The notes beneath the pieces were generated by a model. The model saw only the letters and a program-made list of their open reading frames with translations, was not told where the DNA came from and did not search any database. Below, piece by piece: positions 22,065-42,062 of a stretch of 64,000 bases of DNA. Made by a program: the position numbers and the translations under genes. The stretch comes from Myxococcota bacterium (GTDB lineage Bacteria; Myxococcota_A; UBA9160; UBA6930), in the NCBI GenBank assembly GCA_965223415.1, contig OZ245002.1:4256001-4320000 (forward strand), read 5' to 3'. The stretch's first letter is position 1. Each line of letters begins with the position of its first letter.

Positions 22065-23993
22065 ATGAAGCTGCGAAGCGTGCTCCTGTCCGCGCTCACC
22101 CTCGTGCTGCTGGCCGGCTGCGCCCAGCTCGGCATGCACTGGATGGCCGAGGCCCGCCCGGCCCCGCGGATCGAGGCCCCGGCACCGCCCGGCGAGGCCA
22201 CGCCCTGGACCGGCCTGGCGGCCCTGGACGCCCCCGAGGACTTCCACTTTGCCGTCGTCTCGGACCGCACCGGCGAGCACCGCGCCGGCGTCTTCGCCGC
22301 CGCCATGCCCAAGCTCAACCTGCTCCAGCCGGCCTTCGTGGTGAGCGTCGGAGACCTGATCGAGGGCTACACGGACGACCGCGCACGCCTGGCCGAGGAG
22401 TGGGACGAGATCGAGGGCTTCGTCGACGGCCTGCGCATGCCCTTCTTCTACGCGGCCGGCAACCACGACATGAGCAACCAGGTGATGGCCGAGACCTGGC
22501 GCGACCGCTTCGGCCCTTCCTACTACCACTTCCGCTACAAGGGCGCGCTGTTCGTCGTGCTGAACAGCGAGCTGTTCGGGATGGTCCACGACCCCCGGAA
22601 GTCGGTGCCCGGCCCGTGGACCCAGGCCGAGCAGATGGCGTGGGTCGAACAGGTCCTCGCCGAGAACGCCGACGTCCGCTGGACCTTCGTCTTCGTCCAC
22701 CAGCCCCTCTGGGACGCGCCCCAGATCCACCCGGACTGGCTCAAGGTCGAGGAGCTCCTCGGCGAGCGGGGTTACACGGTCTTTGCCGGGCACTACCACC
22801 GCTACACCGAGCACGTCCGCTCGGGACGCCGCTTCATCACCCTGGCCACCACGGGAGGTGGCAGCCAGATGCGCGGCCTGCCGTGGGGCGAGTTCGACCA
22901 CGTCGCCTTCGTGCGCATGACCGAAGCCGACGGCGACGAACCGGTGGTCGCGAACGTGATGCTGGACGGCGTCCAGGGCGCCGACGTCCGCACCGCCGAC
23001 CTCCGCGCCCTGGTCGACACGATGGCCGGCGCCGTGGCCGTGCTACCCCTGCGCGGGGCCGGTCGCACCTTCCGCAGCGCCACCGCCCGCTTCGAGATCA
23101 CCAACGGGCTCGCGCAGCCCTTGGACGTGGAGGCGCACTTCGACGCGGGCCGCGACCTGGCGCCGGAGCTGGACCGGGCCACCCGCCGACTCGCTCCCGG
23201 CGCGGTCGAGGTGGTGGAGGTGCCGCTGCGCGCGCGCCAGCCGCTCCGCTACGAGGAGCTGGCACCGGCCCATGCCCACTTCACCCTGCGCGCGGCGGGG
23301 CCCGGCGGCGAGCCGGTCGAGATCGAGCAGCAGCGCGCTCTCGTCCCCGACGGTCCCTTCGCGATCACCCGCAGCGACGAGGCCGTGACCGTCGACGGGG
23401 ATCTCGCGGAATGGGATGGCCTGCGCTTCCGGGTCGACGCGCCCGCCCACGTGGAAGGCCACGGTCGCTACCACGGGGCCGAGGACGCGAGCTTCCGATT
23501 CGATCTGCGCCGGGACGCGAGCCATCTCTACGTGGCGGTCGAGGTGACGGACGATTCCATCGTCGCCTCCTCCCACGAGATCGCCCGGGAACAGGACGGT
23601 GTGCAGCTCTCCCTCGATCCGCGCCCGGCACCGGAGCGCAACCAGAACGGCAACCTCTTCGCGTTGATCCGCAGCGGTGCGCTGGCGAAGATGGTTACCG
23701 CGTTCCTCACCGTCGAAGAGCCGCGCCCGGATCCGATCCTGGCGCTGTTCGCCGGCGGCGCCGAGCCGGTCCACCTCCACGCGGCACGCCGGACGCCCGA
23801 CGGCTACGCCACCGAGGTGGCGATCCCGATCGCAGCGCTGGAAGAGCGGGCCGGCGGCGAGTGGGACGGCCTGCGCGTGAACGTCACCGTGTCCGACTTC
23901 GACGAAGGCGAGTCCGGCCACAACACGCTCTCGTGGCGGCCGAGCCGCTTCTCCCCCGGGACTGCCGAGGGCGCCGGCACCTTCGGGCTCTAG
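22065..23993 (+). CDS. Lipoprotein metallophosphoesterase with C-terminal DOMON/CBM9-like domain
   Basis: LAGC lipobox; SDRTG, VGDLIEG, GNHD, HQP and GHYH motifs; later VTVDGDLAEW and LYVAVEVTDD. Confidence 0.8.
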   Translation: MKLRSVLLSALTLVLLAGCAQLGMHWMAEARPAPRIEAPAPPGEATPWTGLAALDAPEDFHFAVVSDRTGEHRAGVFAAAMPKLNLLQPAFVVSVGDLIEGYTDDRARLAEEWDEIEGFVDGLRMPFFYAAGNHDMSNQVMAETWRDRFGPSYYHFRYKGALFVVLNSELFGMVHDPRKSVPGPWTQAEQMAWVEQVLAENADVRWTFVFVHQPLWDAPQIHPDWLKVEELLGERGYTVFAGHYHRYTEHVRSGRRFITLATTGGGSQMRGLPWGEFDHVAFVRMTEADGDEPVVANVMLDGVQGADVRTADLRALVDTMAGAVAVLPLRGAGRTFRSATARFEITNGLAQPLDVEAHFDAGRDLAPELDRATRRLAPGAVEVVEVPLRARQPLRYEELAPAHAHFTLRAAGPGGEPVEIEQQRALVPDGPFAITRSDEAVTVDGDLAEWDGLRFRVDAPAHVEGHGRYHGAEDASFRFDLRRDASHLYVAVEVTDDSIVASSHEIAREQDGVQLSLDPRPAPERNQNGNLFALIRSGALAKMVTAFLTVEEPRPDPILALFAGGAEPVHLHAARRTPDGYATEVAIPIAALEERAGGEWDGLRVNVTVSDFDEGESGHNTLSWRPSRFSPGTAEGAGTFGL

Positions 23994-25354
23994 TCGATGC
24001 CGAGGCGCTGCATCCACCGGTAGAGGGTGGTGCGGTCGACCTGGAGGCGCGCGGCGGCCTCCTGCCGGCTGCCGCCGCAGGCGGCGAGAGCGGAACGGAT
24101 GCGCTCGGCGGTGACGCGGTCGAGGGTCGCGCGCAGGCTCTCGTCCTCAGGCGCCGCCGTCGGCGGCTCCCCCGCCGCCGCTGTGCCGGCGCCGCCCGGG
24201 AGCAGGTCCTCGAGCTCGATCCGCGAGCCGCGGGCCAGCACCACGCCACGCTCGATGGCGTTCTCGAGCTCTCGCGCGTTGCCGGGCCACCCGTGGCTCC
24301 GCATCCACGCCTCGGCCTCGTCGCTCCAGCCGTCCAGGGGAGGCGTCCGGTCCCGCGCCGCGGAAGCGAAGAAGCGCCGGGCGAGGGGCAGGACGTCTTC
24401 CGGCCGCTCCCGGAGCGGCGGCAGGTGGATCGGGATCACCGCGAGCCGGAAGTAGAGGTCCTCCCGGAAGCGCCCCGCTTCGACCTCGGCGGGCAGGTCG
24501 CGGTTGGTGGCGGCGACGATGCGCGCGTCGACCTCGTGCTCGGTCTCGCCGCCCACCCGCACGAGCCGCTTCTCCTGGAGCACCCGCAGCAGCTTGGCCT
24601 GGAACTCCAGGGACACCTCGCCCATCTCGTCGAGGAAGAGGGTCCCGCCGTTCGCCCGCTCGAACAGGCCGGCTCGGGCGCGCTCCGCTCCCGTGAAGGC
24701 GCCACGCTCGTGGCCGAAGAGCTCGCTCTCCAGCACGCCCGGGGCCAGTGCCTTGCAGTTCACCGCGACGAAGGGGCCGCCGACCCGCTCCGAGAGCACG
24801 TGCACGGCGCGGGCGATGCGCTCCTTGCCCGTGCCGCTCTCGCCGGTGACGAGCACGGTGGCCTCGCTGCGTGCCGCCCGGCGGACGATGTCCATCACCT
24901 CGGCCATCATCGGGCTCTCGGCGACGATGGCCTCGCTGCCCTGCTCCCGGCCGAGCTCCGCGCGCAGGTGGCGGTTCTCGCGGCGCAGCCGGGTGTGTTC
25001 CAGGGCACGCTTCACGAGGGCGCGGAGGCCGTCGTTGTCGAAGGGCTTCTCGACGTAGTCGAAGGCGCCTAGCTGCACCGCGCGCACGGCGGTCTCGATG
25101 CTCGCGTGGGCGGTGAGGACGACGACCGGCAGGTCCGCGTCGATCTCCCGCAGCCGCTCGAGCACGGCGATGCCGTCCATGCCGGGCATGCGGAGGTCGG
25201 TCAGCAGCAGGTCGAAGCGCCCCTCCGTGAGGGCGGCGAGGGCCGCTTCCGGCGCGTCGAAGCCCACGGCTTCGTAGCCCTCGCGGCGCAGGAGCATCTC
25301 GAGGATGGCAACGAGCCGGGCCTCGTCGTCGAGGATGGCGATGCGGGGCTTCAA
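23990..25354 (-). CDS. Sigma54-dependent response regulator (NtrC/AtoC family bEBP)
   Basis: Receiver domain (LDDE, TDLRMP, EKPF), GESGTGKE, ELFGHERGAFTGA, WPGNARELEN and a Fis HTH; TTG start overlaps the kinase stop. Confidence 0.92.
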   Translation of the reverse strand: MKPRIAILDDEARLVAILEMLLRREGYEAVGFDAPEAALAALTEGRFDLLLTDLRMPGMDGIAVLERLREIDADLPVVVLTAHASIETAVRAVQLGAFDYVEKPFDNDGLRALVKRALEHTRLRRENRHLRAELGREQGSEAIVAESPMMAEVMDIVRRAARSEATVLVTGESGTGKERIARAVHVLSERVGGPFVAVNCKALAPGVLESELFGHERGAFTGAERARAGLFERANGGTLFLDEMGEVSLEFQAKLLRVLQEKRLVRVGGETEHEVDARIVAATNRDLPAEVEAGRFREDLYFRLAVIPIHLPPLRERPEDVLPLARRFFASAARDRTPPLDGWSDEAEAWMRSHGWPGNARELENAIERGVVLARGSRIELEDLLPGGAGTAAAGEPPTAAPEDESLRATLDRVTAERIRSALAACGGSRQEAAARLQVDRTTLYRWMQRLGID

Positions 25355-26316
25355 GCGGCCTCCTGCCGGCGCCACGGCAGGCTGAGCTCGAAGCAGGCGC
25401 CGCGGCCGCTCGGGCCCGCGCCGCCGCCGGGCACGAGCCGCAGGCTGCCGCCGTGGGCCCGGGCGATCTGCGCCGCCATGGCCAGGCCGAGGCCCGTGCC
25501 CTCCGCCTTGGTCGTGAAGAACGGCTCGAAGAGCTTGTCGCGGGCGTCCGGGGGAACGCCGGGGCCGTCGTCGGCCACCCGCAGGTGGAGGCCCCGCTCG
25601 TCGCGGGATCCCTCCAGGCGAACCCGTCCTTCGGGCGCGACCGCCTCCGCCGCATTCGTCAGCAGGCACAGGAGCACCTGGGAGACGAGACCCGGATCCA
25701 CGTCGATGCTCGTCCCCGCCAGGTCGTCCCTGCGGTCCGCGAACGCGACCCGGTGGGCCTCGAAGGGGGCCTGCGCCAGCTCGACGGCGCGCTCCACCAC
25801 CGCGTCGAGGGAGCTCGGCTGGGGCTCCAGCGTGGTGGGGCGGGCGAAGGCGAGCAGGGCGGTGATGAGGCCGTTCAGCCGGTCCGCCTCCTCCACCACG
25901 AAGGCGCAGGCGCGGTGGGCGTCGTCGCCGGAGTCGAACTGCTCCTGCACCATGGCCGCGGAGGCGCGCATCACGCCCAGGGGGTTGCGCACCTCGTGGG
26001 CGATGCCGGCGGCGAGCCGGCCGATCGCGGCCAGCTTCTCGTTCTCGAAGGCGCTGCGTTCGGAGGCCGCCAGGGCCTCTCCCTGGGCGCGGATCCGCTC
26101 CGCGTCCCGTCGCGCCCGCTCCCGGGCGCGATACAGGGCGCCGGCCAGGCCGCCCATCACGGTGAGGTTGAAGGTGAAGGTCGCGCCCACGAGCCAGGTC
26201 GCGTCGGCGCCGCCGAGCCGCATCTCCACGCCCGTCCAGGCCAGGGCCAGGGTGTCCACCAGCCCGAGGGCGGCTCCTGTCAGCGCGCCCCACAGGGCCC
26301 AGCGCCGTTCCGTCAC
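25351..26316 (-). CDS. Membrane sensor histidine kinase
   Basis: AHEVRNPL H-box, DDGPG and EPFFTTKAEGTGLGL; two TM helices. The start (GTG 26316 vs ATG 26355) is uncertain. Confidence 0.9.
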   Translation of the reverse strand: MTERRWALWGALTGAALGLVDTLALAWTGVEMRLGGADATWLVGATFTFNLTVMGGLAGALYRARERARRDAERIRAQGEALAASERSAFENEKLAAIGRLAAGIAHEVRNPLGVMRASAAMVQEQFDSGDDAHRACAFVVEEADRLNGLITALLAFARPTTLEPQPSSLDAVVERAVELAQAPFEAHRVAFADRRDDLAGTSIDVDPGLVSQVLLCLLTNAAEAVAPEGRVRLEGSRDERGLHLRVADDGPGVPPDARDKLFEPFFTTKAEGTGLGLAMAAQIARAHGGSLRLVPGGGAGPSGRGACFELSLPWRRQEAA

Positions 26317-26411
26317 GAGGTGACTCCTCTCGATCGAAGGGTAACGCCAGGGCATCCTCCGCAAGCCGCATGCCACGGCGCGGAGGCCCGCCGGGCCCGT
26401 CCGGGCGTGCC

Positions 26412-26452
26412 CCGTTGCAGCGCTGCCACGGCCCGTGTTGCAGGGCTGCAAC
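26412..26452. promoter_or_regulatory. Tandem inverted repeats, putative bEBP enhancer (UAS)
   Basis: GTTGCAG-CG-CTGCCAC and GTTGCAG-GG-CTGCAAC lie upstream of a -24/-12 promoter. Confidence 0.6.
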
Positions 26453-26918: not shown

Positions 26919-27380
26919 GTGGAGAAGGGCGACCTGGTCGAAATCGAAGCCATCAAGCAGCTCAAGGCCCGCTACTTCCGCCTCCTGGACCAGAAGCGCT
27001 GGGAGGAGTGGGGCCAGGTCTTCAGCGAGGACGCGGAGCTCGATACGACCCAGGAGGCGCCGAACGCCCGGGCTTCCGGCCGCGACGCCATCGTCGAGAT
27101 GGTGAGCACGGCGGTCGGCGCCGCGGTGACGGTCCACCACGGCCACATGCCGGAGATCGAGATCACCGGGCCGACCACGGCGAGCGGCACCTGGGCGATG
27201 GAGGACTACCTCGAGTTTCCGGGCGATCCGCCGCCGCTGGTGGTGCACGGCCGGGGCCACTACTTCGAGGAGTACGAGAAAGGCGGCGACGGCGCCTGGC
27301 GGATCAAGTCGCTCACCCTGCGTCGGCTCTGGCTCCAGCACAGCGGGAAGCGGACCTTCCCGCCTCAAGGCCTGCCCTGA
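26919..27380 (+). CDS. SnoaL/NTF2-like protein
   Basis: EAIKQLKARYFRLLD, TVHHGHMPEI, GTWAMED and GHYFEEY. Confidence 0.88.
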   Translation: MEKGDLVEIEAIKQLKARYFRLLDQKRWEEWGQVFSEDAELDTTQEAPNARASGRDAIVEMVSTAVGAAVTVHHGHMPEIEITGPTTASGTWAMEDYLEFPGDPPPLVVHGRGHYFEEYEKGGDGAWRIKSLTLRRLWLQHSGKRTFPPQGLP

Positions 27381-28297
27381 GCAGCCGGGCGGAGGGACGC
27401 TTCCTTCGCGAGGGCCTGGGCGCCGGCGACGCGGAACGCATCGGCGCCGGCGAGTGGTCGACGGCCTATGCCTTCGAGCGGGACGGCCGGCGCCTCGTCG
27501 CGCGCTTCGGACACCACCCCGAGGACTTCCGCAAGGACGCCCTGGCGGCGGAGCGCTTCTCCGGGCGTCTGCCCGTCCCGCGGGTGCTCGAAGTGGGGCC
27601 CGCGCACGGGGGCCTCTCGTACGCGGTGTCGGCCTGGGCGCCGGGAGAGCCCCTCGACGGGCTGTCCGAGCCGGGCCTGCGCGCAGCGCTGCCGAGCCTG
27701 CTCGACGCGATGGACGCGATTCGCGCGCTGCCGCCCCCGGGGCCGGAGGGCTTCGGCATGTGGCGCAGCGACGGCCGCACGCCGCACCGGAGCTGGCGGG
27801 CCGCGCTGCTCGCCCTCGTGGAGGAGGAGGAGCTTCCGCGCGCTGCCGGCTGGCGCGCCTTTCTGCGGGCGGAGCCCGAGTGGGCCGCTCGCTTCGACGC
27901 GTCCGCCGCGGCTCTCGCCGAGCTGGCCGGCGCGTGCCCGCCCGGGGTGCGCCACGTGGTCCACGCGGATCTCACCGCCGGCAACGTGCTCGTGGCCGAC
28001 GGCCGCGTGACGGCCGTTCTCGACTGGGGCAACTCGCTCGTGGGCGACTTCCTCTACGACGTCGCCTGGCTCGTCTTCCGGTCCCCCTGGCACCCGGGGC
28101 TCGACGCGGACCTCGTGCTGGCCGAGACCCGCCGGCGCTGCGCCGCCAGCGGCGACGACCTCTCCCACTTCGAGGAGCGCCTGCGCGCGTGCGGGCTCCA
28201 CATCGGCCTCGACTCGCTGGCCTACAACGCCTTCCGCCACGACGCCGTGAATCTGCGCGGGACGCTCGGGCGGATGCGGGAGCTCTTCTCCCTCTAG
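27377..28297 (+). CDS. Aminoglycoside phosphotransferase (APH)-family kinase
   Basis: LPVPRVL, VHADLTAGNVL and VLDWG...GDFLYD; the start is uncertain (CTG overlapping the upstream stop). Confidence 0.8.
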   Translation: MSSRAEGRFLREGLGAGDAERIGAGEWSTAYAFERDGRRLVARFGHHPEDFRKDALAAERFSGRLPVPRVLEVGPAHGGLSYAVSAWAPGEPLDGLSEPGLRAALPSLLDAMDAIRALPPPGPEGFGMWRSDGRTPHRSWRAALLALVEEEELPRAAGWRAFLRAEPEWAARFDASAAALAELAGACPPGVRHVVHADLTAGNVLVADGRVTAVLDWGNSLVGDFLYDVAWLVFRSPWHPGLDADLVLAETRRRCAASGDDLSHFEERLRACGLHIGLDSLAYNAFRHDAVNLRGTLGRMRELFSL

Positions 28298-28317
28298 CGC
28301 GGCGCCGTTCCCGAGAG

Positions 28318-28956
28318 CTAGGCGAGCTCCAGCAGGTTCCGGGCCAGGTCGACGCCGTCCTTCGCCTGGGCGCCCCAGCCGTCCGCGCCTTGGTCGTCGG
28401 CCCACTGCTGGGTCGTCACGCCTCCGCCGACGATCACCGGGTACTTGTCCCGGACCTTCATCTCCTGGAGCAGGTCGAGCAGCTCCGCGAACTTCTCGAG
28501 GGCCGGGGCGAAGACCACCGACACCGCGATCATGTCCGCGCCGCTCTTCTCCGCCGTCTCGTAGAAATCCCAGGGCGTGTTCTTCTCGCCCATGTCGATC
28601 ACGTCGAAGCCGCCGATCGAGAGCAGGGTTCCCACCAGGTTCTTGCCGATGTTGTGCTGGCTGAGGAGCGTGCCCAGCACGATCTTCCGATTGTTCTTCG
28701 GCGTCTCGCCCCGGGGAAGCGCCGCCTCGATCAACGGGATGCAGGTCTTGGCGGTCACGCCCGCGCGCACCAGGTCGAGCACGATGGCCTTGCGGGCGGC
28801 GAAGCGATCGCCCACGTCGCTCAGGCCCTGCATCACGCCTTCTTCGAGCAGCTGCATGGGGTCGAGGCCAGCGGCCAGGAGCTCGCGGGTCATCTCCGCG
28901 GCCGGCTCCGGCTGGGTCTCGCTCACCTTCCGTCGCAGGTCTCCGATCGTCGCCAT
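28318..28956 (-). CDS. Corrinoid (B12-binding) protein, MtmC/MtbC-like
   Basis: N-terminal cap (GLDPMQLLEEGVMQGLSDVGDRF), KIVLGT, HNIGKNLV, FDVIDMG, VIVGGGVTTQQWA and GADGWG. Confidence 0.88.
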   Translation of the reverse strand: MATIGDLRRKVSETQPEPAAEMTRELLAAGLDPMQLLEEGVMQGLSDVGDRFAARKAIVLDLVRAGVTAKTCIPLIEAALPRGETPKNNRKIVLGTLLSQHNIGKNLVGTLLSIGGFDVIDMGEKNTPWDFYETAEKSGADMIAVSVVFAPALEKFAELLDLLQEMKVRDKYPVIVGGGVTTQQWADDQGADGWGAQAKDGVDLARNLLELA

Positions 28957-28966
28957 TCATCCTCTC

Positions 28967-30325
28967 CTAGGCGTCGGTCCAGGTGGGGTAGTCCAGTCCG
29001 AGCTCCCGGAAGATCCGGGTGAACTTCCGGTACTGCAGGACGAGCTCCTCGCGGGGGCGGAGGGTCGTCAGGTCGTAGAGCTTGTCGAGCCCGACCGGGG
29101 GCGGAGTGGGCTCGCGCTCCGCCGCATTGATCTTTCGGATGATCTCCACGCCCTCTTGCGGAGTGAGGGTCGCGGCGGCCCGGGCGATCTCTCCCGCCCA
29201 GCGGCACTCGAGGCCCGTCGAGCCCCCTGCCAGCCACAGAGCCTCCATCCCGGAGATGCAGGCATTGATGCAGTGGGTGGCCGTGTCGTACCAGGCGTCG
29301 TCCGAGAAGGCGGCGCCGGGCTGGCCCGTACTGCCGAAGGAAACCCAGGGGAGCTTCAGGTTCCGCTCCGCCGCGAGCGCCGCCGCCGAGTTGCACCAGG
29401 TGATGTCGGCCCCGACGTAGCTGCCGTGGATCGACATCGACATGGCCTGGGTGAGTGCGCCGCCCGAGTAGCAGAGCATGCCCAGGGTGTGGGCGATGAT
29501 CTCGATGGCCGCCTGCTCCGGCCCGGTCACGTAGCCGTACATCGCCGGGGAGCTGCTCATCCATGGCTCGATGCCGTGTTGGTCGCCGAAGAAGGCCAGG
29601 TTGAAGCGGTCGTAGTTGATCCGCATGTCCTGGAGGGTCTGCACCGGCAGCGTGCAGTTCCGAGCGTTGTACATGCCGGGACCGAAGGTGCTCATCATCG
29701 CGAGCGGCGTCGTGGCGCTCATCGGGATGCCGAAGAAGAGGCCCGGCTTGCCTGCCCAGGCCGCCGCCTCGTTCATCGCGCGGGCCTCGGTCTGGCACAC
29801 GACGGTCTGGGCCGGCGTGTCGAGGATGTTCTTCAGCTCGCCCACGCCGAGCAACGGGATCGGGATCACGCCGTCGCAGGTCGGCTCCTGCATCGACGTC
29901 ATGGCGTAGAGCTTGTAGCGGTCGACGTTCTTGGTGAGCGCGCCCGCCGGGAACCAGGTGAAGGGATGCCGGGCGTCGCCCGGCGCCCGGGGCGAGAGGG
30001 TGATGGCCTCGCGCCCGGATCCCAGGGTGATCTCGTGGCGGGCGGCGGCGATGGCCTCGAGGACCTCCTCCTCGGTGAACTTGACGATCCGCCGGGTGTC
30101 CTTGCAGTAGAGGCCCACCTCGAGCAGCAGGTCGAGGCCCGCGCGGAAGATCGCGTCCGCCAGGTCGGGGTCGATCATCACCGGGTCTTCGCCGTTCCAT
30201 TCGATCCGGTGCCGGGCCTGCACCTCGGCCATGACGGTGGGGAAGAGCTCGGTCTCGAACTTCTCTTCGATCATGATCGGCCCGGTGCCCGAGCGCTCGA
30301 CCGCCTGCCAGAGGAGCTTGCCCAT
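28967..30325 (-). CDS. mtmB: Monomethylamine:corrinoid methyltransferase (MtmB) family protein lacking pyrrolysine
   Basis: GLYCKDTRRIVKFTEEEV (compare MtmB GIYCTDTHRIVKYTEDEI), AGKPGL, GPEQAAI, TGLECRWAGE and LYDLTTLRP; 452 aa with no in-frame amber codon. Confidence 0.8.
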   Translation of the reverse strand: MGKLLWQAVERSGTGPIMIEEKFETELFPTVMAEVQARHRIEWNGEDPVMIDPDLADAIFRAGLDLLLEVGLYCKDTRRIVKFTEEEVLEAIAAARHEITLGSGREAITLSPRAPGDARHPFTWFPAGALTKNVDRYKLYAMTSMQEPTCDGVIPIPLLGVGELKNILDTPAQTVVCQTEARAMNEAAAWAGKPGLFFGIPMSATTPLAMMSTFGPGMYNARNCTLPVQTLQDMRINYDRFNLAFFGDQHGIEPWMSSSPAMYGYVTGPEQAAIEIIAHTLGMLCYSGGALTQAMSMSIHGSYVGADITWCNSAAALAAERNLKLPWVSFGSTGQPGAAFSDDAWYDTATHCINACISGMEALWLAGGSTGLECRWAGEIARAAATLTPQEGVEIIRKINAAEREPTPPPVGLDKLYDLTTLRPREELVLQYRKFTRIFRELGLDYPTWTDA

Positions 30326-30336
30326 GGAGGTCTCCT

Positions 30337-31518
30337 TCAGCCCTGCAGGTAGCACTCGCCCTCGCGCATGCAGCGCATGAGGGCGGCGCATTCCTGGCCG
30401 ACGTAGCGGATGTGCTGGGGCAGCAGCCACGGCATCACGTCCACGATGTACCAGGAGAGATCCTCGGGGTCGCTGAAGGCGTCCTCCCACTGGATGTCGC
30501 TGGCATCGTGGTTGAGCAGCATCGCCCGGGCCTTGCCGCCGTCGTTGCCGAACAGGAAGACGCCGGAGGGATCGACGTGGAGGGGCAGGGGGCGCTTGAA
30601 CCAGTCTCCCAGCACACGCCAGGAGCGCGCGAAGTCCCGGGCCGGGAGCACGACCCGTTGGAGGAGGAAGGTGGCCGTACCCGCTTCGACCCCGAGACGC
30701 CGGGCCTCCTCCCGGTGTCGGCGCACGAGGGCCGTCGCTTCGAGGGGCCAGTCCGTGTAGACGTCGCAGCGCTGCAGCACGTAGGAGGCGAAGAGCTTGT
30801 CCTCGACGATCTCGAAGTCTGCCGACGCGAGGTTCGCGTCCCGCGCACCGGGGAGGAAGCACCGTTCGAAATCGTCGCGGGTGAAGTCCAGGAAGGCAGG
30901 GAACTCGTCCCTCGCCTCCTTCTCGCCATTCTCGAGGACCGGTGTCTCGACGGTCACCAGGGCGTTCAGCGCCACGGCGGCGCGCTCGCCGGGGGCGCTC
31001 TCCCGCTCGCTGCCGATCCGGAGCGCGAGGTTCAGGAGCTGGAGCCAGCCGTCGGCGACGCTGCTGGTGAAGATCGGGAAGCTCGTCTTGCGCGAGAGGA
31101 AGACCTTCCGCTCGGGGATTTCGGGCGCGGTCAGGCGGAGGCCCGTGCGCTCTCCGGACCGGAAGGGCAGGTCGCGGATCGACGCGGCCAGGTCGCCTTG
31201 AGGCTTCTCGCGCAGGTCCGATATCTGGACGTCCGACCGCAGGGCATCGACGGGGGTGGCGCCGAGCTCCGGCGAGAGCCGCCCACGAGGGCCCGCCAGC
31301 CGGCCGTCCTCGTCGAGGCCCTGCTTCCAGAGGACGACCAGGGCGTCGCCGGTGGCCTTCCGGTCGTCGCCCGCGAGCACCAGGTGGCGGACGTCCGGGT
31401 GCGCTGCCAGCTCTCGCAGCAGCTGCTCCAGCTCGGAGCGGGAGCCGAGCGGCGCCGAGAACGCGATGCGCTCTCCTTCGAGATGGGTGCCACAGACGAC
31501 GACGTCACGAGTGGGCAT
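30337..31518 (-). CDS. Fusion of MtrA-like, degenerate thymidylate synthase-like and DUF4346-like domains
   Basis: LAAHPDVRHLVLAGDD..TGDALVVLWKQGLDEDG (MtrA-like); SVADGWLQLL and LFASYVLQRCDVYTDWP (TS-like); DPSGVFL and HIRYVGQE (DUF4346-like). Confidence 0.6.
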   Translation of the reverse strand: MPTRDVVVCGTHLEGERIAFSAPLGSRSELEQLLRELAAHPDVRHLVLAGDDRKATGDALVVLWKQGLDEDGRLAGPRGRLSPELGATPVDALRSDVQISDLREKPQGDLAASIRDLPFRSGERTGLRLTAPEIPERKVFLSRKTSFPIFTSSVADGWLQLLNLALRIGSERESAPGERAAVALNALVTVETPVLENGEKEARDEFPAFLDFTRDDFERCFLPGARDANLASADFEIVEDKLFASYVLQRCDVYTDWPLEATALVRRHREEARRLGVEAGTATFLLQRVVLPARDFARSWRVLGDWFKRPLPLHVDPSGVFLFGNDGGKARAMLLNHDASDIQWEDAFSDPEDLSWYIVDVMPWLLPQHIRYVGQECAALMRCMREGECYLQG

Positions 31519-32179
31519 GACGATCCTCCTGGCCTCTGCGGGTGCAGAAGGCACGGATGAACTGGTCTTCCAGCCGTTCGAGCACGGCTTCGTGGGCCGC
31601 CTCCAGGCCCTGCTCGACCCAGTGGGTCAGCTCCACCTGCTTGAGGGCGAGCATCTTGCGGACCAGCAGGTCCGGGTCGTCCGGGACGTAGAGGCCCTCT
31701 GCGATGCCGCGTTCGAACAGCGCGCGCGGGATCGCGGCGCCCTCGTCCCAGATCGGCGACTCCCCGGCCGCGTTGGCGAGCCTCGACGCCCAGCCGTAGC
31801 CGTCGCGGCTGCACATTCGCAGGAAGTCCGGGCGCTCGAGGAAGTAGCGGGCGCCTTCCCGCAGCACCGCCAGGTGGGCGGGGAGGGTGTCCGCGTGCGC
31901 GTCGTGGGCGGCTCGTATGCAGGCGAGGAATTCGCGCATCCGCACCCGGTGGATCTCGCGGAAGAGCGAGTCCTTTCCGTCGATGACGCCGTAGAGGGTC
32001 CCGAGGGACACGCCGGCCTCGGCCGCGATGTCCCGCATGCGGGAGCCGTCGGCACCCTTGGCGCCGAACACGCGCTCGGCGGCGGCGGCGACCGCCTCGC
32101 GGTAGACCGATGCGCGCTCCTCGCGCATGCGCTGCTGGATCGGTGCGCTGCGGGTCTTCGCGGGGGCTCTCCGGGCCAT
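31505..32179 (-). CDS. TetR/AcrR family transcriptional regulator
   Basis: AAERVFGAKG...RMRDIAAEAGVSLGTLY...KDSL. Confidence 0.9.
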   Translation of the reverse strand: MARRAPAKTRSAPIQQRMREERASVYREAVAAAAERVFGAKGADGSRMRDIAAEAGVSLGTLYGVIDGKDSLFREIHRVRMREFLACIRAAHDAHADTLPAHLAVLREGARYFLERPDFLRMCSRDGYGWASRLANAAGESPIWDEGAAIPRALFERGIAEGLYVPDDPDLLVRKMLALKQVELTHWVEQGLEAAHEAVLERLEDQFIRAFCTRRGQEDRHAHS

Positions 32180-32187
32180 GAATCCGG

Positions 32188-32216
32188 ATTCTATTACATT
32201 AGAACCAGAATTTCAA
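32188..32216 (-). promoter_or_regulatory. Sigma70-type promoter of the tetR operon, overlapping an imperfect inverted repeat (probable operator)
   Basis: The minus strand reads TTGAAA-N17-TAGAAT-N8-ATG, with a TTCTA-N6-TAGAA dyad in an AT-rich patch. Confidence 0.75.
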
Positions 32217-32830
32217 TCGGCGACGGCGAACACCAGGAAGCTCTGCCGATCCAGGAAGGTGTGGTCGGCGTCGAGGCGGTAGCCCGCCTCGACGAGGGCG
32301 GAGACGATGGCGTCCTTGTCCGTGGCGTGGTTGCCGAGCAGCGACCAGCCGTCCCGGGGCGCGTACTCCACCACGGCGATCCGGGCTCCCGGCCGGAGGT
32401 GCGGCTTCAGGTTCGCGAAGTAGGCCGCCTGGTCCGGCAAGTGGTGGAAGGTGTTGCAGGTGAAGATCCAGTCGACGGGCTCCGGGAGCTTCGCGTCGTC
32501 CGGCGCGGCGAGGACTGCGCTCACGTTGGCAACGCCGTCCTCCTCGGCCTTGCCGGCGATGTAATCCGTCATGTCCGCGTCGATGTCCACCGCGTAGACG
32601 CGCCCCTCCGGCACCGCCGCGGCGAGGCGGAAGGTGAAGTAGCCGCCGCCCGCACCGAGATCCGCGATCAGGGCGTCCTCGGCGAAGCCGAGGCTCGCGA
32701 CCACCTGGGCCGGCTGCTGCCACTGGTCCCGGTCGCCCCCGGCGTACATGCGGCGCTTGAGCCAGCCGCAGCCGAGGCTTCCCGCGACCAGCGCGGTGAG
32801 CAGGGCGAGAGCGATCGCCCGTCGGGTCAT
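32213..32830 (-). CDS. Class I SAM-dependent methyltransferase, exported or lipoprotein
   Basis: RDQWQQP, IADLGAGGGYFT, VYAVDID and LRPGAR; LGC lipobox-like motif. Confidence 0.88.
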   Translation of the reverse strand: MTRRAIALALLTALVAGSLGCGWLKRRMYAGGDRDQWQQPAQVVASLGFAEDALIADLGAGGGYFTFRLAAAVPEGRVYAVDIDADMTDYIAGKAEEDGVANVSAVLAAPDDAKLPEPVDWIFTCNTFHHLPDQAAYFANLKPHLRPGARIAVVEYAPRDGWSLLGNHATDKDAIVSALVEAGYRLDADHTFLDRQSFLVFAVAD

Positions 32831-32840
32831 GTCCGTTCTC

Positions 32841-34025
32841 CTAGGCCGGGCGCAGGGTGTTCAGCTCGCGCGCGTTGTCGCGCAGGATCCTCTGGAGCGA
32901 GGCGGCATCGAAGCCCTCCAGCTCCTCCAGGTAGTCGAGAGGCTGGGGCATGCCCTCGATGTGGGGCCAGTCCGAGCCGAAGATCACGCGCTCGGGGCCC
33001 ATGATCTCCACGACCTCGTTCACGTCGTCTTCCCAGAACGGGTTGATCCAGACGTGCTCCTTGAAGAGCGCGCCCGGGTCCTCCTGGTAGTAGCCCGGGA
33101 TCTTGTCCGCGGACTGCTTCAGCTTGCGGAAGAGGTCCGGCAGGAACTCGGAGCCGTTCTCGACCGAGGCGATGCGCAGGTTCGGGAAGCGCTCGTACAT
33201 GCGGCCGTAGGACATGGTGATCAGCCAGTCGTAGGCGGCGCGCTCGATGTTGAAGGCCTTGATCGACGGGGTGTAGCCGCCGCCGTCGAAGCTCGCGCCG
33301 AAGCCGTCGCGGGTGTAGCCGTGGGTGGTGTAGCCGCTGTCGCCGGCGTGGACGACGGTGGTGATGCCCGCTTCGTTCACCCGCGCCCAGAAGGGATCGA
33401 AGCGCTCGTCGGCTGGGGAGAAGGTGCCATCGCGGGTCCAGACCGCCGCCGGCCGCATGGCGATGATCCGGGCGCCCCGGTCGAGGGCCCACTCCAGCTC
33501 GGAGACCGCGAAGTCCGTGTCGCAGAGGCTGATGTAGGGCGCGGCGAAGATGCGGTCCTTGTAGTGGCAGCCCCAGTCCTCGTCGATCCACCGGTTGAAG
33601 GCCCGGAACACCCACTCCACCGCCTGGGGGTCCTCCTTCAGGAGCTCCTCGTAGAGCACGCCCAGGGTGGGGAAGAGCCACATCGCCTCCAGGTCCTGCT
33701 CGTCCATCATCTGGATCCGGGCGTCGGCGTCCCGGTAGCAGGCGGGGATGGGCTCCCGCTCGCGCAGGTAGTGGACCGGGTGCTTCTTCTCCGGGTTGCC
33801 GCGGAAGAACTGGTGGAGGGCGCCGGGCTTCGCGATCGGGTCGAAGGTGGGGTTGACCACCGCGTGGCTCACCTTGCCGCCGACCACGTGGTACTGGCGC
33901 CCGTCGATTTCCGCCCACTGCACCGTGCGGGGCCCCGTCTTGGGGTCGAGATGGCGGGTGAAGGCGTCGAGAGCTTCGTAGTAGTGGTTGTCGGCGTCGA
34001 AGACCGGGTAGTCGACCGTGGGCAC
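32841..34025 (-). CDS. Amidohydrolase family 2 protein
   Basis: FDADNHYYE, LFPTLG, AFNRWIDEDW and IFGSDWPHIEG; GTG start with GAAGGAG RBS. Confidence 0.9.
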   Translation of the reverse strand: MPTVDYPVFDADNHYYEALDAFTRHLDPKTGPRTVQWAEIDGRQYHVVGGKVSHAVVNPTFDPIAKPGALHQFFRGNPEKKHPVHYLREREPIPACYRDADARIQMMDEQDLEAMWLFPTLGVLYEELLKEDPQAVEWVFRAFNRWIDEDWGCHYKDRIFAAPYISLCDTDFAVSELEWALDRGARIIAMRPAAVWTRDGTFSPADERFDPFWARVNEAGITTVVHAGDSGYTTHGYTRDGFGASFDGGGYTPSIKAFNIERAAYDWLITMSYGRMYERFPNLRIASVENGSEFLPDLFRKLKQSADKIPGYYQEDPGALFKEHVWINPFWEDDVNEVVEIMGPERVIFGSDWPHIEGMPQPLDYLEELEGFDAASLQRILRDNARELNTLRPA

Positions 34026-34064
34026 GGGGGGCTCTCCTTCGGGAGGCGAGGTTACCCTGGGGCC

Positions 34065-34598
34065 GTGCCTCGTGCCGACTGGAAGGTGTCCGCGCTGTGG
34101 AACGGCGCGCCCGCGGACCCGGAGGAGCACGCCGAGCTGCGGCTCGAGTGGGACGCCGAGGAGGCGGTGCTTCAGGTCGAGGCGCCCCTCCACGGCGACC
34201 CGGCACCGCCCGGCCCGCCGGGTCCGATGCCCGGCCTGTGGGAGTACGAGGTGGTAGAGCTGTTCCTGCTGGGGGAGGGTGAGCGCTACCTCGAGATCGA
34301 GGTCGGCCCCCACGGCCATCACTGGGTGCTGGAGCTGGAGGGCGCCCGGCAGGCCGTGCGGGAGGGCCTGCCCCTGCGCCTCGACGCCCGCATCGACGGT
34401 CCCCGCTGGCGAGCCGAGGCCCGCTTCCCCGCCGCCTGGCTCCCCCCCGGCCTCCACGCCGCCGCCGCCTACGCCATCCACGGCCGGGGCCGCGCCCGCC
34501 GCTACCTCTCCGCCTTCCCCCTCCCGGGCCGCGAGCCCGACTTCCACCAGCTCGCCGCCTTCCGCCCTCTCCGAATGAAGAAACGGGGCCAGAGTTAA
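34065..34598 (+). CDS. Hypothetical protein resembling UPF0462/C4orf33
   Basis: APLHGDPAPP, LWEYEVVELF, YLEIEVGPHGHH, YAIHG and PDFH. Confidence 0.7.
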   Translation: MPRADWKVSALWNGAPADPEEHAELRLEWDAEEAVLQVEAPLHGDPAPPGPPGPMPGLWEYEVVELFLLGEGERYLEIEVGPHGHHWVLELEGARQAVREGLPLRLDARIDGPRWRAEARFPAAWLPPGLHAAAAYAIHGRGRARRYLSAFPLPGREPDFHQLAAFRPLRMKKRGQS

Positions 34599-34645
34599 GA
34601 ATTCAGTTTCTTCGAAACTGAATTCTTAACTCTGGCCCCGTTTCT
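34579..34645. repeat. REPIN-like long inverted repeat (32-bp arms, 3-nt loop)
   Basis: AGAAACGGGGCCAGAGTTAAGAATTCAGTTTC-TTC-GAAACTGAATTCTTAACTCTGGCCCCGTTTCT. Confidence 0.88.
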
Positions 34646-34693
34646 GATCCCCGCGGGGTTTGACAGCGAGGTGGGGGTTCCGAGGCTTCGGGC

Positions 34694-34846
34694 ATGTTCA
34701 GTCCCAACGACGAGCCGACCGGAAGCCGCCCGGAGCCGGGAGCCGCCGAGCCGATGGACGCGGCGGTCCATACCTGGGACCCGACGCTCTGGGCCCTCTA
34801 CCTGACCGAGCTGGCCCAGCGTCAGAGCAGGGAGCGGATGAACTAG
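34694..34846 (+). CDS. Small hypothetical protein (50 aa), absent from the ORF track
   Basis: MFSPNDEPTGSRPEPGAAEPMDAAVHTWDPTLWALYLTELAQRQSRERMN*; strong G/C bias at third codon positions; TTGACA at 34660. Confidence 0.55.
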   Translation: MFSPNDEPTGSRPEPGAAEPMDAAVHTWDPTLWALYLTELAQRQSRERMN

Positions 34847-34868
34847 GCCCGAACTAGGCTCCGGGGCC

Positions 34869-35627
34869 ATGTCGCTGGAAGGACGCGTTGCGCTGGTAAC
34901 CGGAGGCGGCCGGGGCGCGGGCCGGGCCATCGCCCTGGGGCTGGCCGAAGACGGCGCCGACGTCGCGGTGAACTACCGCCGGGACGAGGGGGCCGCCCGC
35001 GAAGCCGTCGCGGCCATCCAGGCGTTGGGGCGCAAGGCCGCCGCCTACGCCGCCTCGGTGGACGACTACGACGCCGACGCCGCCATGGTCGACGGGGTGC
35101 TGAAGGACTTCGGCCACGTCGACATCCTGGTGAACAACGCGGGCATCGCGAGCCGCGGCCACAGCGTGCTGAAGACCGACCCCGCAGAGCTCGAACGGGT
35201 CGTCCGCACCCACGCCTTCGGCCCCCACCACCTGAGCCAGCTGGTGCTCCCCAGCATGCGTGAGCGCCCGAGGGGCGACATCGTGATGATCTCCAGCGTC
35301 GCCACCCTCCACCACGGCGCGGGCGGCGCGCCCTACAACATGGGCAAGGCCGCCATGGAGGCTCTGGCCTTCACCCTCGCGAAGGAAGAGAAGCGCCACG
35401 GCATCCACGTGAACATCGTCGCTCCGGGGCTGATCGAGACCGAGATGGGCCGCCGGCTGATGAAGGCCACGGCGGGCGTGGAAGATCTCCGCAGCCTCGA
35501 CGCCGGCATGCCCTTCGGCCACGTGTGCACGCCGGAGGAGGTCGCCGCGGTGGTGCGCTTCCTCGTCTCCGACGCGGCCAGCTACGTCACGGGCGAGAAG
35601 ATCAACGTGCACGGGGGAGGCTCCTAG
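34869..35627 (+). CDS. SDR family oxidoreductase
   Basis: TGGGRGAG, NNAG and YNMGK. Confidence 0.92.
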   Translation: MSLEGRVALVTGGGRGAGRAIALGLAEDGADVAVNYRRDEGAAREAVAAIQALGRKAAAYAASVDDYDADAAMVDGVLKDFGHVDILVNNAGIASRGHSVLKTDPAELERVVRTHAFGPHHLSQLVLPSMRERPRGDIVMISSVATLHHGAGGAPYNMGKAAMEALAFTLAKEEKRHGIHVNIVAPGLIETEMGRRLMKATAGVEDLRSLDAGMPFGHVCTPEEVAAVVRFLVSDAASYVTGEKINVHGGGS

Positions 35628-39463: not shown

Positions 39464-42034
39464 ATGTTCGGCACGAAGAAGATCCGCTTCAAGAGCCTGC
39501 AGACCGAGCTCCTGGCGTGGTTCCTGGTCCTGGGCGCGCTTCCTCTCGTGACGGTCGGCGTGATCGGTTACCAGCGCAGCGCGCAGGCTCAGCTCGACAG
39601 CCAGGGCGCCTTCTTGCAGAAGCAGGCCCAGGACGCCATCGACAAGATCGATCGCAACCTGTTCGAACGCTACGGCGACGTGCAGGCCTTCGCCTACAAC
39701 CCGAAGGCCCAGGGAGACCGCGAGGCGGTGACCGAGGCCGCGAACTTCTTCACGATCAACTACGGGATCTACGACCTGATGGTCATCGTGGACGCCGAGG
39801 GGAGCGTCGTCGGCGCCAACACCGTCGACTGGGAGGGCAATACACTCGATACGTCGGTCCTCGTCGGCAAATCCGCCGTCGGTCTGGACTGGTGGGACGC
39901 GATCGCTGCCGGAAAGGTGGGCAAAGGCGAGACCTTCTACACGGAGCTCGCGGAGCATGACTGGGTCGGTCGGGTCTACCGCAATCGCGGTCTGGGCCTG
40001 CTCTACGCGGCACCGATCTTCGACGAGGCGGGCACCGTTGCTGGGGCCTGGGCCAACTGGGCCTCCGCCGATCGGGTGGTCGCGGCGATCATGACCGAGA
40101 CCCGGGACAATCTGGCCAAGGTCGGCGTGACCACCGCGGAATCGCAGGTCCTCACGAAGAGCGGCCAGCTCGTGGATGCCCCGGACGTCGATTCGATCAT
40201 GAGCGACGTCAACCTGGTCGAGCTGGGCGTCGCCTCCGCGGAGAAGGCCGTCGGAGAGGAGACCGGCTACCTCCTCGAAGACCCCGAGCGCATCGGGAGC
40301 GAGGTGCTCACCGGCTACGCCCACTCCGAGGGGGCCCTCGGGTTCGCCGGATACGACTGGTCCGTGTTGATCCGCCAGGACGCTTCGGAGGCCGCCGCGG
40401 CAGCCACCGCTCTGCGCGACTTCACGATGATGCTCATCGCGGGGTCGCTCCTGGTGATCGGGTTGCTGGCGCTGCGCATTGCCCGCGGAATCGTCGGCCC
40501 CATCAATCACCTGAAGAACGGCACCGAAGCCGTGGCGTCCGGTGAGCTGGACGTCGAGCTCGACATCGACGTCGACAACGAGATCGGCGCCGTCGCCCGA
40601 TCGTTTCGTACCGCCGCCGCGGCAATGGCGGGTGCCCTCGGCTCAAGCTCCGTGGATTGGACGGAGATCGGCAAGAAGCAGCGGCAGGCGGCGAGGACCC
40701 ACTCGATGGTCCAGAACGTGCCGGTCAACATGGTTTTCGCCGATCAGGACTTCAACGTGCGCTACATGAACCCCGCTTCCTTCGAGTCGCTGAAGCAGGT
40801 TCGGGAACACCTGCCGGTGTCCGCCGACGAGATCATCGGAATCAACATCGACGTGTTCCACACCCAGCCTGAGAAGGTTCGCTCCATCCTCTCGGATCCC
40901 AATCGGCTTCCCCACTCGACCCAGATTCAGATCGGCCCGGAGATGGTGCAGCTCTCCGCATCGGCCATTCTCGACGATGACGGTGAGCTAGAGGGCTATC
41001 TGGCCTCGTGGTGGTTCATCACCGAGAAAGTGAAGAACGAGCGCGAGGTCCAGGAGGCCGCCGAGCGCGAGCAGCGGATGGCCGAGGACCTGCGGGCCCG
41101 GGTCGACAGGATGCTCCAGATCGTCAACGCCGCGAGCGCCGGCGATCTGACTCAGGACCTGAGCGTCGAGGGCGACGACGCGGTAGGGTGCATGGGCCAG
41201 GAGCTGGCGCGCTTCTTCGCCGACCTGCGCCAGAACATCGCCTCGATCGGCGAAAACGCCTCAGCCCTGGCCTCCGCCGCCGAGGAGCTCACGGCCACCA
41301 GCCAGGAGATGGGCGCCAACGCCGAACGGACCTCCCAGCAGGCCGGCGTGGTGTCCTCGGCGTCGGACCAGGTGAACGACAACGTGCAAGCCGTGGCGAC
41401 GAGTACGGAGCAGCTCTCGGCCAGCATTCGCGAGATCTCCCGCAATGCGTCGGAGGCGGCGCAGATCGCGACCCAGGCCGTCACCGTCGCGAGCAACACC
41501 AACGCATCTGTCGCGAAGCTGGGCGAAAGCAGTGTCGAGATCGGCAACGTCATCAAGGTGATCAACTCCATCGCGGAGCAGACCAACCTGCTGGCTCTGA
41601 ACGCCACCATCGAGGCCGCGCGGGCCGGCGAGGCGGGCAAGGGCTTCGCCGTCGTCGCCAACGAGGTGAAGGAGCTCGCCAAGCAGACCGCCGACGCGAC
41701 CGAGGACATCAGCCAGAAGATCGAAGCCATCCAGGGCGATACGGGCGAGGCCGTGCAGGCGATCGGGCAGATCAGCGACGTGATCAACCAGATCAACGAC
41801 ATCTCCAACACGATCGCCAGTGCCGTCGAGGAGCAGACCGCCACCACCGGTGAGATCACACGGAGCGTGCAGAACGCGGCGGAGAGCACCGAGGAGATCA
41901 GCCAGAACATCATGGAGGTCGCCCGGGGCGCCGACGGCACGAACGCGGGGGCAGGCGATACCCAGCGAGCGGCCCGGGAGTTGGCGAAGATGGCGGAGGA
42001 GCTGCAGACCCTGGTCGGGCGCTTCACGTACTAG
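39464..42034 (+). CDS. Methyl-accepting chemotaxis protein (Cache-HAMP-PAS-HAMP-MA)
   Basis: [17 protein letters not shown]ache domain, TM, HAMP, PAS (NIDVFH) and [30 protein letters not shown]. Confidence 0.95.
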
Positions 42035-42062
42035 GGGCGCCTGGTCCTCCGAGAGGCATCCG

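Follow-up and report, generated by a model that had tools for sequence, protein, structure and literature searches.

To our knowledge, methanogens and strict anaerobes are the main sources of known corrinoid-dependent substrate demethylases, and the acceptor-side enzymes of these systems are of two folds. Here we describe four genes that appear to encode such a system in a Myxococcota bacterium, on a 64,000-nucleotide stretch of contig OZ245002.1 (assembly GCA_965223415.1, positions 4,256,001 to 4,320,000); this whole stretch is called the window below, and positions are counted from its first nucleotide unless a related locus is named. The genes encode a TetR-family regulator, a three-domain protein (here, the third protein), a homologue of the methyltransferase MtmB, and a corrinoid protein. 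They have in common with the MtmB/MtmC/MtbA system of Methanosarcina (monomethylamine:coenzyme M (CoM) methyl transfer; MtmB structure 1L2Q) the MtmB family itself, alignable over its full length, and the two-step corrinoid logic, but differ from it in having glycine in place of pyrrolysine (Pyl) 202, no amber codon, no MtbA, and the motif SQHNIG instead of DxHxxG in the corrinoid protein. As in the glycine betaine system MtgB/MtgC/MtgA of Desulfitobacterium and in O-demethylases, genes for a first methyltransferase, for a corrinoid protein, and for the acceptor side would lie in one cluster, with the methyl group presumed to reach tetrahydrofolate (THF). The second methyltransferase of the MtgA type is a pterin-binding TIM-barrel enzyme resembling dihydropteroate synthase (MtrH/MeTr type), and an activator of the RamA/RACo type is often encoded nearby. 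Unlike those systems, the operon described here has a thymidylate-synthase-fold protein with a DUF4346 domain in the slot of the second methyltransferase, and its hosts are apparently aerobic.

Homologues of MtmB without Pyl have long been known, with elusive roles, and the first function to be reported, in 2026, was that of MtqB, which with MtqC and MtqA performs tetramethylammonium/choline:CoM methyl transfer in Methanococcoides methylutens (available text of PMC13044021). That system, which likewise places a Pyl-free first methyltransferase of the MtmB family beside its cognate corrinoid protein, is the best functional analogue for the release of TetR and for the transfer from substrate to Co(I) that are proposed below. 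It is archaeal, anaerobic, and methanogenic, and its MtbA-type CoM methylase is encoded elsewhere; unlike it, and as far as a comparison by description goes, the present system has bacterial, apparently respiratory hosts, is regulated by TetR, and always has a protein derived from thymidylate synthase and DUF4346 next to the pair. A set of conserved Met/Cys/aromatic pocket residues is characteristic of the MtqB branch. Bacterial systems studied so far usually carry the gene for the H4folate methylase within the cluster (available text of PMC10418091); the mlp gene clusters of that paper are a different system, and MtmB, MtrA, and pterin are unmentioned in the same text. The accessible part of PMC11264602 has a passing mention only of mtmB in metagenome-assembled genomes (MAGs). 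In the open-access literature searched, we found no description of a thymidylate-synthase-like partner of corrinoid proteins or of an MtrA/thymidylate synthase homologue. Taken together, this suggests that a three-component corrinoid methyltransferase system is known in kind and that what is new lies in the third component, the variant corrinoid motif, and the aerobic host range.

A conserved TetR-linked operon with a Pyl-free MtmB homologue

We place a probability of roughly 0.55 on the reading that these genes form a substrate-inducible, TetR-repressed operon for corrinoid methyl transfer, most likely for catabolic demethylation, with the third protein on the acceptor side. The four genes, which span 28318-32216 together with their promoter, are each an uninterrupted open reading frame (ORF) with a single terminal stop in the ORF check of the window:

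31505-32179, minus strand, TetR-family regulator, 224 amino acids (aa), first gene of the operon
30337-31518, minus strand, three-domain (third) protein, 393 aa
28967-30325, minus strand, MtmB-like protein, Pyl-free, 452 aa, proposed substrate:corrinoid (first) methyltransferase
28318-28956, minus strand, corrinoid (B12-binding) protein, 212 aa, with a cap domain and a Rossmann B12 domain

The TetR stop and the start of the third-protein gene overlap by 14 nucleotides (nt), the gaps that follow are 11 and 10 nt, and GGAG-type ribosome-binding sites precede the genes for the third, MtmB-like, and corrinoid proteins. With this tight spacing, the common strand, and the Pfam families detailed below, the assignment as a TetR-linked corrinoid methyl-transfer operon, first made in an initial annotation based on the sequence alone, is supported. 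The window has a G+C content of ~71%, and terminator-like hairpins are no more frequent than expected by chance (2 against 2.0). A search of Rfam gave no riboswitch and no other RNA family in the window, and among the eight related loci without the usual TetR the same search gave two tRNAs only.

Using an alignment of the third protein as bait, a scan of species-representative genomes returned 24 related loci (L001-L024), of which nine are from Deltaproteobacteria/Myxococcota, seven from Gammaproteobacteria (including Halieaceae and Steroidobacteraceae), four from Dehalococcoidia, one from Binatia, one from a genome labelled Spirochaetaceae, and two from unclassified genomes. Three of the loci end at the third-protein gene, leaving 21 in which adjacency can be judged. 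In all 21 the MtmB-like and corrinoid genes adjoin the third-protein gene; 19 have the order seen in the window, with a median spacing of 45 nt (measured in 18 loci) and 22 nt (in 16), and in the other two (Dehalococcoidia) the pair is convergent. The recurrence of this gene set in 21/21 judgeable loci from several phyla lies far outside what chance would produce. Of the 24 loci, 18 have an adjacent gene of the TetR family; the regulator of the window type (60-72% identical) lies upstream in 15 of the 24, a different one (TetR_C_11) adjoins the operon in L008, L010, and L012, no TetR was seen in four loci, and two others have too little upstream DNA. The initial annotation had named a failure of the 452-aa protein to match MtmB, or a lack of co-conservation of the neighbourhood, as grounds on which it would fall, and the results went the other way on both.

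The 452-aa protein matches the MtmB family PF05369 over nearly its whole length (E-value (E) 3.9e-44; 151.6 bits against a cut-off of 25; residues 6-444 of 452 on profile positions 4-450 of 450) and aligns with M. barkeri MtmB (1L2Q) at E 6e-33, residues 11-444 against 15-456. In the latter alignment Pyl, X202 of 1L2Q (the X being counted on the alignment), faces Gly199 in the motif GLFFGIPM:

29729-29731, minus strand, codon of Gly199 (GGC), aligned to pyrrolysine X202 of MtmB

Gly199 is invariant (111/111 full-length clade members), and Phe/Trp197, Pro201, and Met202 are near-invariant in the same set. The gene contains no amber codon and no other internal stop, as had been claimed for it; a Pyl-dependent MtmB made by read-through was ruled out on this ground and by the glycine at the Pyl position. 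Homologues that are 57-87% identical come from Deltaproteobacteria, Myxococcota, Halieaceae, and Binatia MAGs, and their sources name them (mono)methylamine:corrinoid methyltransferase or methylamine--corrinoid protein Co-methyltransferase. These names, together with the small monomethylamine activity shown by MtqB (available text of PMC13044021), would fit a monomethylamine:corrinoid methyltransferase that works without Pyl. We regard this as very improbable for the 452-aa protein, given the invariant glycine, the absence of any NCBIfam family matching it at E <= 0.01, and the description in the same text of Pyl as needed for monomethylamine, with the other non-Pyl MtmBs left functionally unassigned. 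A search of a plasmid collection in protein mode gave no match for the MtmB-like protein or for the third protein. In the related loci, 20 uninterrupted MtmB-like ORFs of 450-456 aa were found in 19 loci; in L010 the gene is split over two frames (3257-4619), and one further MtmB-like ORF runs off the end of its contig. In L015 the corrinoid gene reaches a stop after only 76 codons (12672-12899); this gene and the split one of L010 are either MAG assembly errors or decaying copies.

The corrinoid protein has both the Rossmann B12 domain (B12-binding, PF02310, E 7.4e-16) and the cap (B12-binding_2, PF02607, E 1.3e-7). Its NCBIfam scores remain below the cut-offs (MtgC, 125 against 310; TIGR02370, 115.5 against 215.3; MtbC, 102.8 against 350), with the pyl_corrinoid model a near match that is also below its cut-off. 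The canonical DxHxxG motif is replaced by SQHNIG, in which the cobalt-ligand His101 (28654-28656) and the Gly are kept and the Asp has become Ser; SQHNIG is found in 21/21 cognate copies (L001-L018, L021, L022, and L024). Two unrelated corrinoid paralogues in the same loci retain the usual Asp, and the change of the Asp of the His-Asp-Ser relay to Ser (residues 99-101, 28654-28662) is confined to the carrier of this operon.

The first gene encodes a protein with a TetR_N helix-turn-helix domain (Pfam, E 2.6e-10), to which named TetR models of NCBIfam give weak N-terminal matches only, all far below their cut-offs. The control region ahead of it comprises the following:

32188-32216, minus strand, sigma-70-like promoter with -35 box TTGAAA (32216-32211), 17-nt spacer, and -10 box TAGAAT (32193-32188)
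32180-32204, minus strand, putative TetR operator with three ATTCT/AGAAT-type half-sites, spanning the -10 box and the region of the transcription start

The promoter, with 10/12 consensus matches, is the sole match in 27300-35000, where shuffled sequence gives an expectation of 0.2, in line with the single clear promoter of the initial annotation. As its -10 box ends 8 nt ahead of the TetR ATG, the operon mRNA would be leaderless or nearly so. The half-sites read TTCTA (32204-32200), six nucleotides, and TAGAA (32193-32189), and a perfect 12-bp palindrome, GAATCC/GGATTC at 32191-32180, overlaps this repeat. In an alignment of 12 TetR-upstream regions, every sequence has the AGA of the -10 box, each remaining base of TAGAAT is shared by at least 90% of them, and the flanking TTCT and GATT are conserved too, giving a layout of TTGAAA, (G/A)TTCT(A/G), six to eight bases, TAGAAT, four bases, and GATT; the upstream region of L011 has no obvious match to it. 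A half-site repeat laid over the -10 box, and so a palindromic putative operator that overlaps the gene's own promoter, is what an autoregulating TetR would use, and TetR, whose binding we infer from this layout, is probably autoregulated.

Domains and lost residues of the third protein

The third protein is the component for which the closest described systems offer no counterpart, and its domains are laid out as follows:

31144-31518, minus strand, MtrA-like Rossmann domain, approximately residues 1-125, sub-threshold match to PF04208
30589-31131, minus strand, degenerate thymidylate-synthase-like domain, approximately residues 130-310, profile and fold match
30343-30573, minus strand, DUF4346 (PF14251), residues 316-392, Pfam match

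This make-up, which had been proposed from the sequence, is borne out by Pfam, by profile matches to the Protein Data Bank (PDB), and by the predicted fold. PF14251 (PterinBD-DUF4346) is matched at E 2.5e-9 (38.2 bits against a cut-off of 29.6; profile positions 2-85 of 86), the MtrA family PF04208 reaches 22.1 bits against a cut-off of 25, and the thymidylate synthase family PF00303 gives no match at E <= 0.01 in the copy of the window. A profile of the third-protein family matches thymidylate synthases in the PDB at E 9.7e-9 and MtrA structures at E 9e-8. An AlphaFold2 model based on 133 sequences has a predicted local distance difference test (pLDDT) score of 94 and a predicted template-modelling score of 0.91; an earlier model based on 15 sequences had a poor C-terminal domain (pLDDT ~40-50). 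The best Foldseek matches of the model are thymidylate synthases, together with pyrimidine hydroxymethylases (E ~2e-7; target-normalised TM 0.4-0.5), and since thymidylate synthases only were returned, the search is uninformative on DUF4346. Homologues that are ~48-62% identical and mostly ~460 aa long carry PF14251 and PF00303, sometimes with PF04208, and among the names given to them by their sources are "thymidylate synthase" and "tetrahydromethanopterin S-methyltransferase subunit A." In the ESM Atlas the nearest clusters for the whole protein score 0.89 and 0.87, under the bar of 0.9, and are leads only by feature similarity, commonest in Cyanobacteriota, Pseudomonadota, and Nanobdellota; the DUF4346 part gave no usable match there.

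Thymidylate synthase activity depends on a catalytic cysteine, Cys146 of ThyA, and on nucleotide-site residues that include Arg126, Arg127, and Asn177, while the side chain of Asp169 hydrogen-bonds the pterin ring of folate. We counted these residues, by alignment to 1TYS and in E. coli numbering, in 125 close homologues of the third protein and in eight distant relatives of the same architecture, the latter taken from a DUF4346-profile search of 1.84 billion representatives. The nucleophile Cys146 is present in 0/125 close homologues, where its position is held by G/D/N/A/S/E/H/Q/T, and in 8/8 distant relatives, and the same counts, 0/125 and 8/8, hold for Asn177 and again for Arg127. The equivalent of Asp169, in contrast, is kept in 123/125 close homologues and in 8/8 distant relatives:

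30763-30765, minus strand, codon of Asp252, equivalent to thymidylate synthase Asp169 (E. coli numbering; alignment to 1TYS)

The third protein thus shares with ThyA and with the Cys-bearing MtrA-like/thymidylate-synthase/DUF4346 proteins the fold, the Asp169 equivalent, Pro175, and the C-terminal "RPLP..." strand region, and with the latter also the three-domain architecture. It differs from both in the loss of Cys146, Asn177, and Arg127; its own place is in a corrinoid operon. The Cys-bearing proteins form a sister family (P0258-P0262 and P0267-P0269; 476-534 aa) that keeps the Cys, Asn, and Arg, has an MtrA-like domain likewise lacking a His at the ligand position, and may consist of working thymidylate synthases with two extra domains. 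The residue pattern suggests a thymidylate-synthase family with accessory domains, one branch of which gave up its nucleotide chemistry and settled into a corrinoid operon.

The N-terminal domain matches the Rossmann domain of MtrA from the methanogen Mtr complex (5LAA, 5L8X; PMC4915002), in which, according to the available text of that paper, cobalt is ligated by His84 and the motif GAIPF(Y/F)xEN is present. Unlike in MtrA, His84 falls in a two-residue gap of the third-protein family profile, the GAIPF(Y/F)xEN motif is missing (the region reads G-R-L-S..A-E-L), and the domain is altogether absent in 10/24 loci, where the TetR gene abuts a protein of ~295-337 aa. The description of the third protein as "methanogen-like" in the initial annotation is accordingly an overstatement. 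Although the fold and profile matches to both enzymes, as well as the source names of the homologues, would point to a functional thymidylate synthase or to a functional corrinoid protein of the MtrA type, the probability of either is close to nil: the former was ruled out by the loss of Cys, Asn177, and Arg127 throughout the 125 homologues, with the segment of Arg126/127 deleted in the copy of the window, and the latter by the lack of His84 and of GAIPFxEN and by the sub-threshold Pfam score.

DUF4346 is the best-conserved part of the third protein, at 78-95% identity across Proteobacteria, Myxococcota, and Binatia and ~54% in Dehalococcoidia, compared with 46-62% for the whole protein over the same loci, and conservation so far above that of the whole protein fits a constrained interaction or ligand site. 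Since its start ("RPLPL..DPSG.FLF") aligns to the C-terminal strand region of thymidylate synthases, DUF4346 at least in part continues the thymidylate-synthase fold.

Proposed methyl transfer and its alternatives

When no inducer is present, TetR would sit on the ATTCT/AGAAT operator over the -10 box of its own promoter, and a ligand, presumably the substrate or a relative of it, would release it. The MtmB homologue would bind the methylated substrate and transfer one of its methyl groups to the Co(I) of the corrinoid protein; from the resulting methyl-Co(III) form of that protein, the protein derived from thymidylate synthase and DUF4346 would pass the methyl group on to an acceptor, which is most likely THF, and the methyl group would then enter one-carbon metabolism, for example via methylenetetrahydrofolate reductase (MTHFR). 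Oxidised Co(II) would be reactivated by a factor of the RACo type or another kind encoded elsewhere. Methyl transfer from the substrate and onward is in this scheme predicted from homology and operon position.

That the third protein is an acceptor-side partner of the corrinoid protein in one form or another seems to us probable; that it is specifically a methyl-corrinoid:THF methyltransferase is possible, at slightly under even odds. The acceptor-side role is favoured because the third gene is strictly linked to the MtmB-like/corrinoid pair, because no canonical second methyltransferase lies nearby, because the folate-side Asp has been selectively retained, because MTHFR genes are neighbours in two loci, and because the third-protein copy of L008 serves several MtmB-like and corrinoid genes. 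The absence of a canonical second methyltransferase, already remarked on when the locus was first annotated, extends from the window ORFs scanned, among which there is neither a Pterin_bind/MtrH nor a uroporphyrinogen-decarboxylase-type (MtaA-MtbA) enzyme, to the flanks of the related loci, where 111 ORFs were compared at E <= 1e-8. The MTHFR gene of L008 lies directly upstream, together with MetK (S-adenosylmethionine (SAM) synthetase), and that of L007 is a homologue beside a formyl-transferase gene, 3-4 kb upstream. More tentatively, we propose that the third protein represents a new class of methyl-corrinoid:THF methyltransferase derived from thymidylate synthase, with the nucleotide site lost and the folate site kept, which together with a non-Pyl MtmB and a Ser-x-His corrinoid protein would allow aerobic heterotrophs from four or five bacterial lineages, if not more, to demethylate a hitherto unrecognised methylated compound from the environment in a B12-dependent way.

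Several observations weigh against this scheme. The copy of the third protein in the window is without the ~50-residue segment that carries Arg126/127, as are 13/125 homologues, and it has Q, R, and P at the positions of Arg166, Ser167, and Tyr209; the former active-site positions vary within the clade, for example among G/D/N/A/S/E/H at the position of the Cys, and a thymidylate-synthase site eroded in this way would fit a scaffold as well as an enzyme. For DUF4346, a profile search of PDB sequences gave a best E of 0.47 and no solved relative, no paper on DUF4346 or PF14251 was found in the open-access literature searched, and the Pfam name "PterinBD-DUF4346" cannot be taken as evidence that the domain binds pterin. 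Support for a link to folate is slender, with MTHFR nearby in 2/24 loci only. Flanking ORFs were picked by length with overlaps removed, so that a short real gene could have been displaced by a longer spurious ORF in G+C-rich loci. No reductive activator of the RACo/RamA type was found among the ORFs scanned in the window, which is 64 kb of a contig of roughly 5.8 Mb; the earlier description of the system as "self-contained" goes further than the data, and a RACo gene lies within ~6 kb in only 2/24 loci (L015 and L021); an essential function is therefore encoded outside the operon, and a second methyltransferase could be too. As for the substrate, its predicted class rests on a single relative, MtqB, likened by description, and the cytochrome P450 and monooxygenase neighbours described below hint at a substrate larger and more hydrophobic than choline or tetramethylammonium.

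In the main alternative, the MtmB-like and corrinoid proteins act as above, but the third protein is a non-catalytic accessory of the corrinoid protein, such as a scaffold, a cobamide-loading chaperone, or a protector or reactivation adaptor in an oxic cell, and the true second methyltransferase (MtrH/MeTr-like, MetH-like, or thiol-directed) is encoded elsewhere. The erosion of the active site, most marked in the copy of the window, speaks for this. The variable active-site positions, the deletion of part of the fold, the MtrA-like domain that is dispensable and without a cobalt ligand, and the evident placement of other essential functions, such as the reductive activator, outside the operon are all consistent with such a role, and the conservation of DUF4346 fits a protein-protein interface as well as a catalytic site. 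We nevertheless consider an accessory role unlikely: linkage of the third gene to the pair persists in every judgeable locus, including the rearranged Dehalococcoidia, none of the flanks scanned supplies a canonical second methyltransferase, and the pterin-side Asp has been kept while nucleotide-side residues have been lost. In L008, moreover, where MTHFR is a neighbour, there is a single third-protein copy for three MtmB-like genes and two corrinoid genes, as would be expected of a second methyltransferase that they share.

The pathway could also run in the synthetic direction, with methyl-THF on the thymidylate-synthase-like/DUF4346 protein donating to the corrinoid protein and from there, via the MtmB-like protein, to a small-molecule acceptor, which would amount to the logic of MetH distributed over three proteins. 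Corrinoid methyl transfers are chemically reversible, and the SAM synthetase and MTHFR genes beside the operon of L008 would fit a supply of methyl groups; on the other hand, TetR-repressed operons beside P450, monooxygenase, hydrolase, and dehydrogenase genes look catabolic, and MtmB and MtqB are both demethylases (available text of PMC13044021), leaving synthesis improbable. For the demethylation that we prefer, a quaternary amine or another N-methyl amine, one that does not need activation by Pyl, is the likeliest substrate, because tetramethylammonium and choline are the substrates of MtqB, the sole non-Pyl MtmB characterised so far. A bulkier methylated compound would also be compatible with the oxygenase-rich neighbourhoods.

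If this account is true, an acceptor-side role for the third protein would add a third solution to that side of corrinoid chemistry, built on a dead thymidylate-synthase relative and found in apparently aerobic Myxococcota, marine and soil Gammaproteobacteria, Binatia, and Dehalococcoidia. It would give DUF4346 a first function, would show a central biosynthetic enzyme recruited as a folate-handling module, and would provide a role for one large branch of the non-Pyl MtmBs, which apart from MtqB are functionally elusive (PMC13044021, in its available text). It would also imply a methylated compound, sensed by TetR, whose turnover in oxic soil and seawater is currently not credited to B12 enzymes. 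The system is small, with three proteins and a repressor, and as such is directly testable by reconstitution.

Neighbouring genes and the wider window

Oxidative enzymes are recurrent neighbours of the operon. A cytochrome P450 gene lies within 2 kb in four loci, a luciferase-like monooxygenase gene, counted separately, within 2 kb in four, and two luciferase-like monooxygenase genes are found ~5 kb from the operon in the window. A SnoaL_4 gene stands just past the corrinoid gene in the window (26919-27380) and in L012 (12988-13437). The SnoaL_4, P450, and luciferase-like neighbours are possible hints on the substrate or on downstream steps.

The most elaborate of the related loci is L008 (Binatia), where positions 6156-18312 contain, in order, an ArsR-SAM-methyltransferase fusion gene, the MTHFR gene, the SAM synthetase gene, the third-protein gene, two tandem MtmB-like genes, and a corrinoid gene, followed by a convergent TetR_C_11 gene, a second corrinoid gene with a normal DxHxxG motif, a 29%-identical MtmB-like gene, and a luciferase-like monooxygenase gene. 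The SAM synthetase of this locus is split into two ORFs, possibly by a frameshift.

Upstream of the operon in the window, at 32213-34547 on the same strand, are two further genes:

32213-32830, minus strand, SAM-dependent methyltransferase, 205 aa, N-terminus lipoprotein-signal-like by eye
32841-34547, minus strand, Amidohydro_2 (amidohydrolase) protein, 568 aa

The -35 box of the operon overlaps the stop codon of the methyltransferase gene. No homologue of either protein was found in the 24 loci at E <= 1e-5, and because they have no counterpart there and the conserved promoter lies downstream of both, the two genes are probably outside the operon.

Elsewhere in the window, cytochrome c, acyl-CoA dehydrogenase, chemotaxis, and sigma-54 regulator genes fit a respiratory heterotroph, which agrees with the non-methanogenic host that had been supposed. 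At 23990-26451 on the minus strand, genes for a histidine kinase and an NtrC-type response regulator form a sigma-54-dependent two-component pair, which together with the G+C content of 71% would fit a host like the Myxococcota. A chemotaxis cluster at 39464-47925 comprises genes for an 856-aa methyl-accepting chemotaxis protein, CheA-CheW, CheB, a response regulator, and a CheX-like protein, and is followed by genes for a PilZ/cyclic nucleotide-binding protein (47928-48719) and a cytochrome c (48749-49594). Some 20 kb from the operon, and conceivably linked to one-carbon handling, are genes for a glutathione S-transferase (50460-51149) and for a protein (53438-53869) of the GFA family, the family of glutathione-dependent formaldehyde-activating enzyme.

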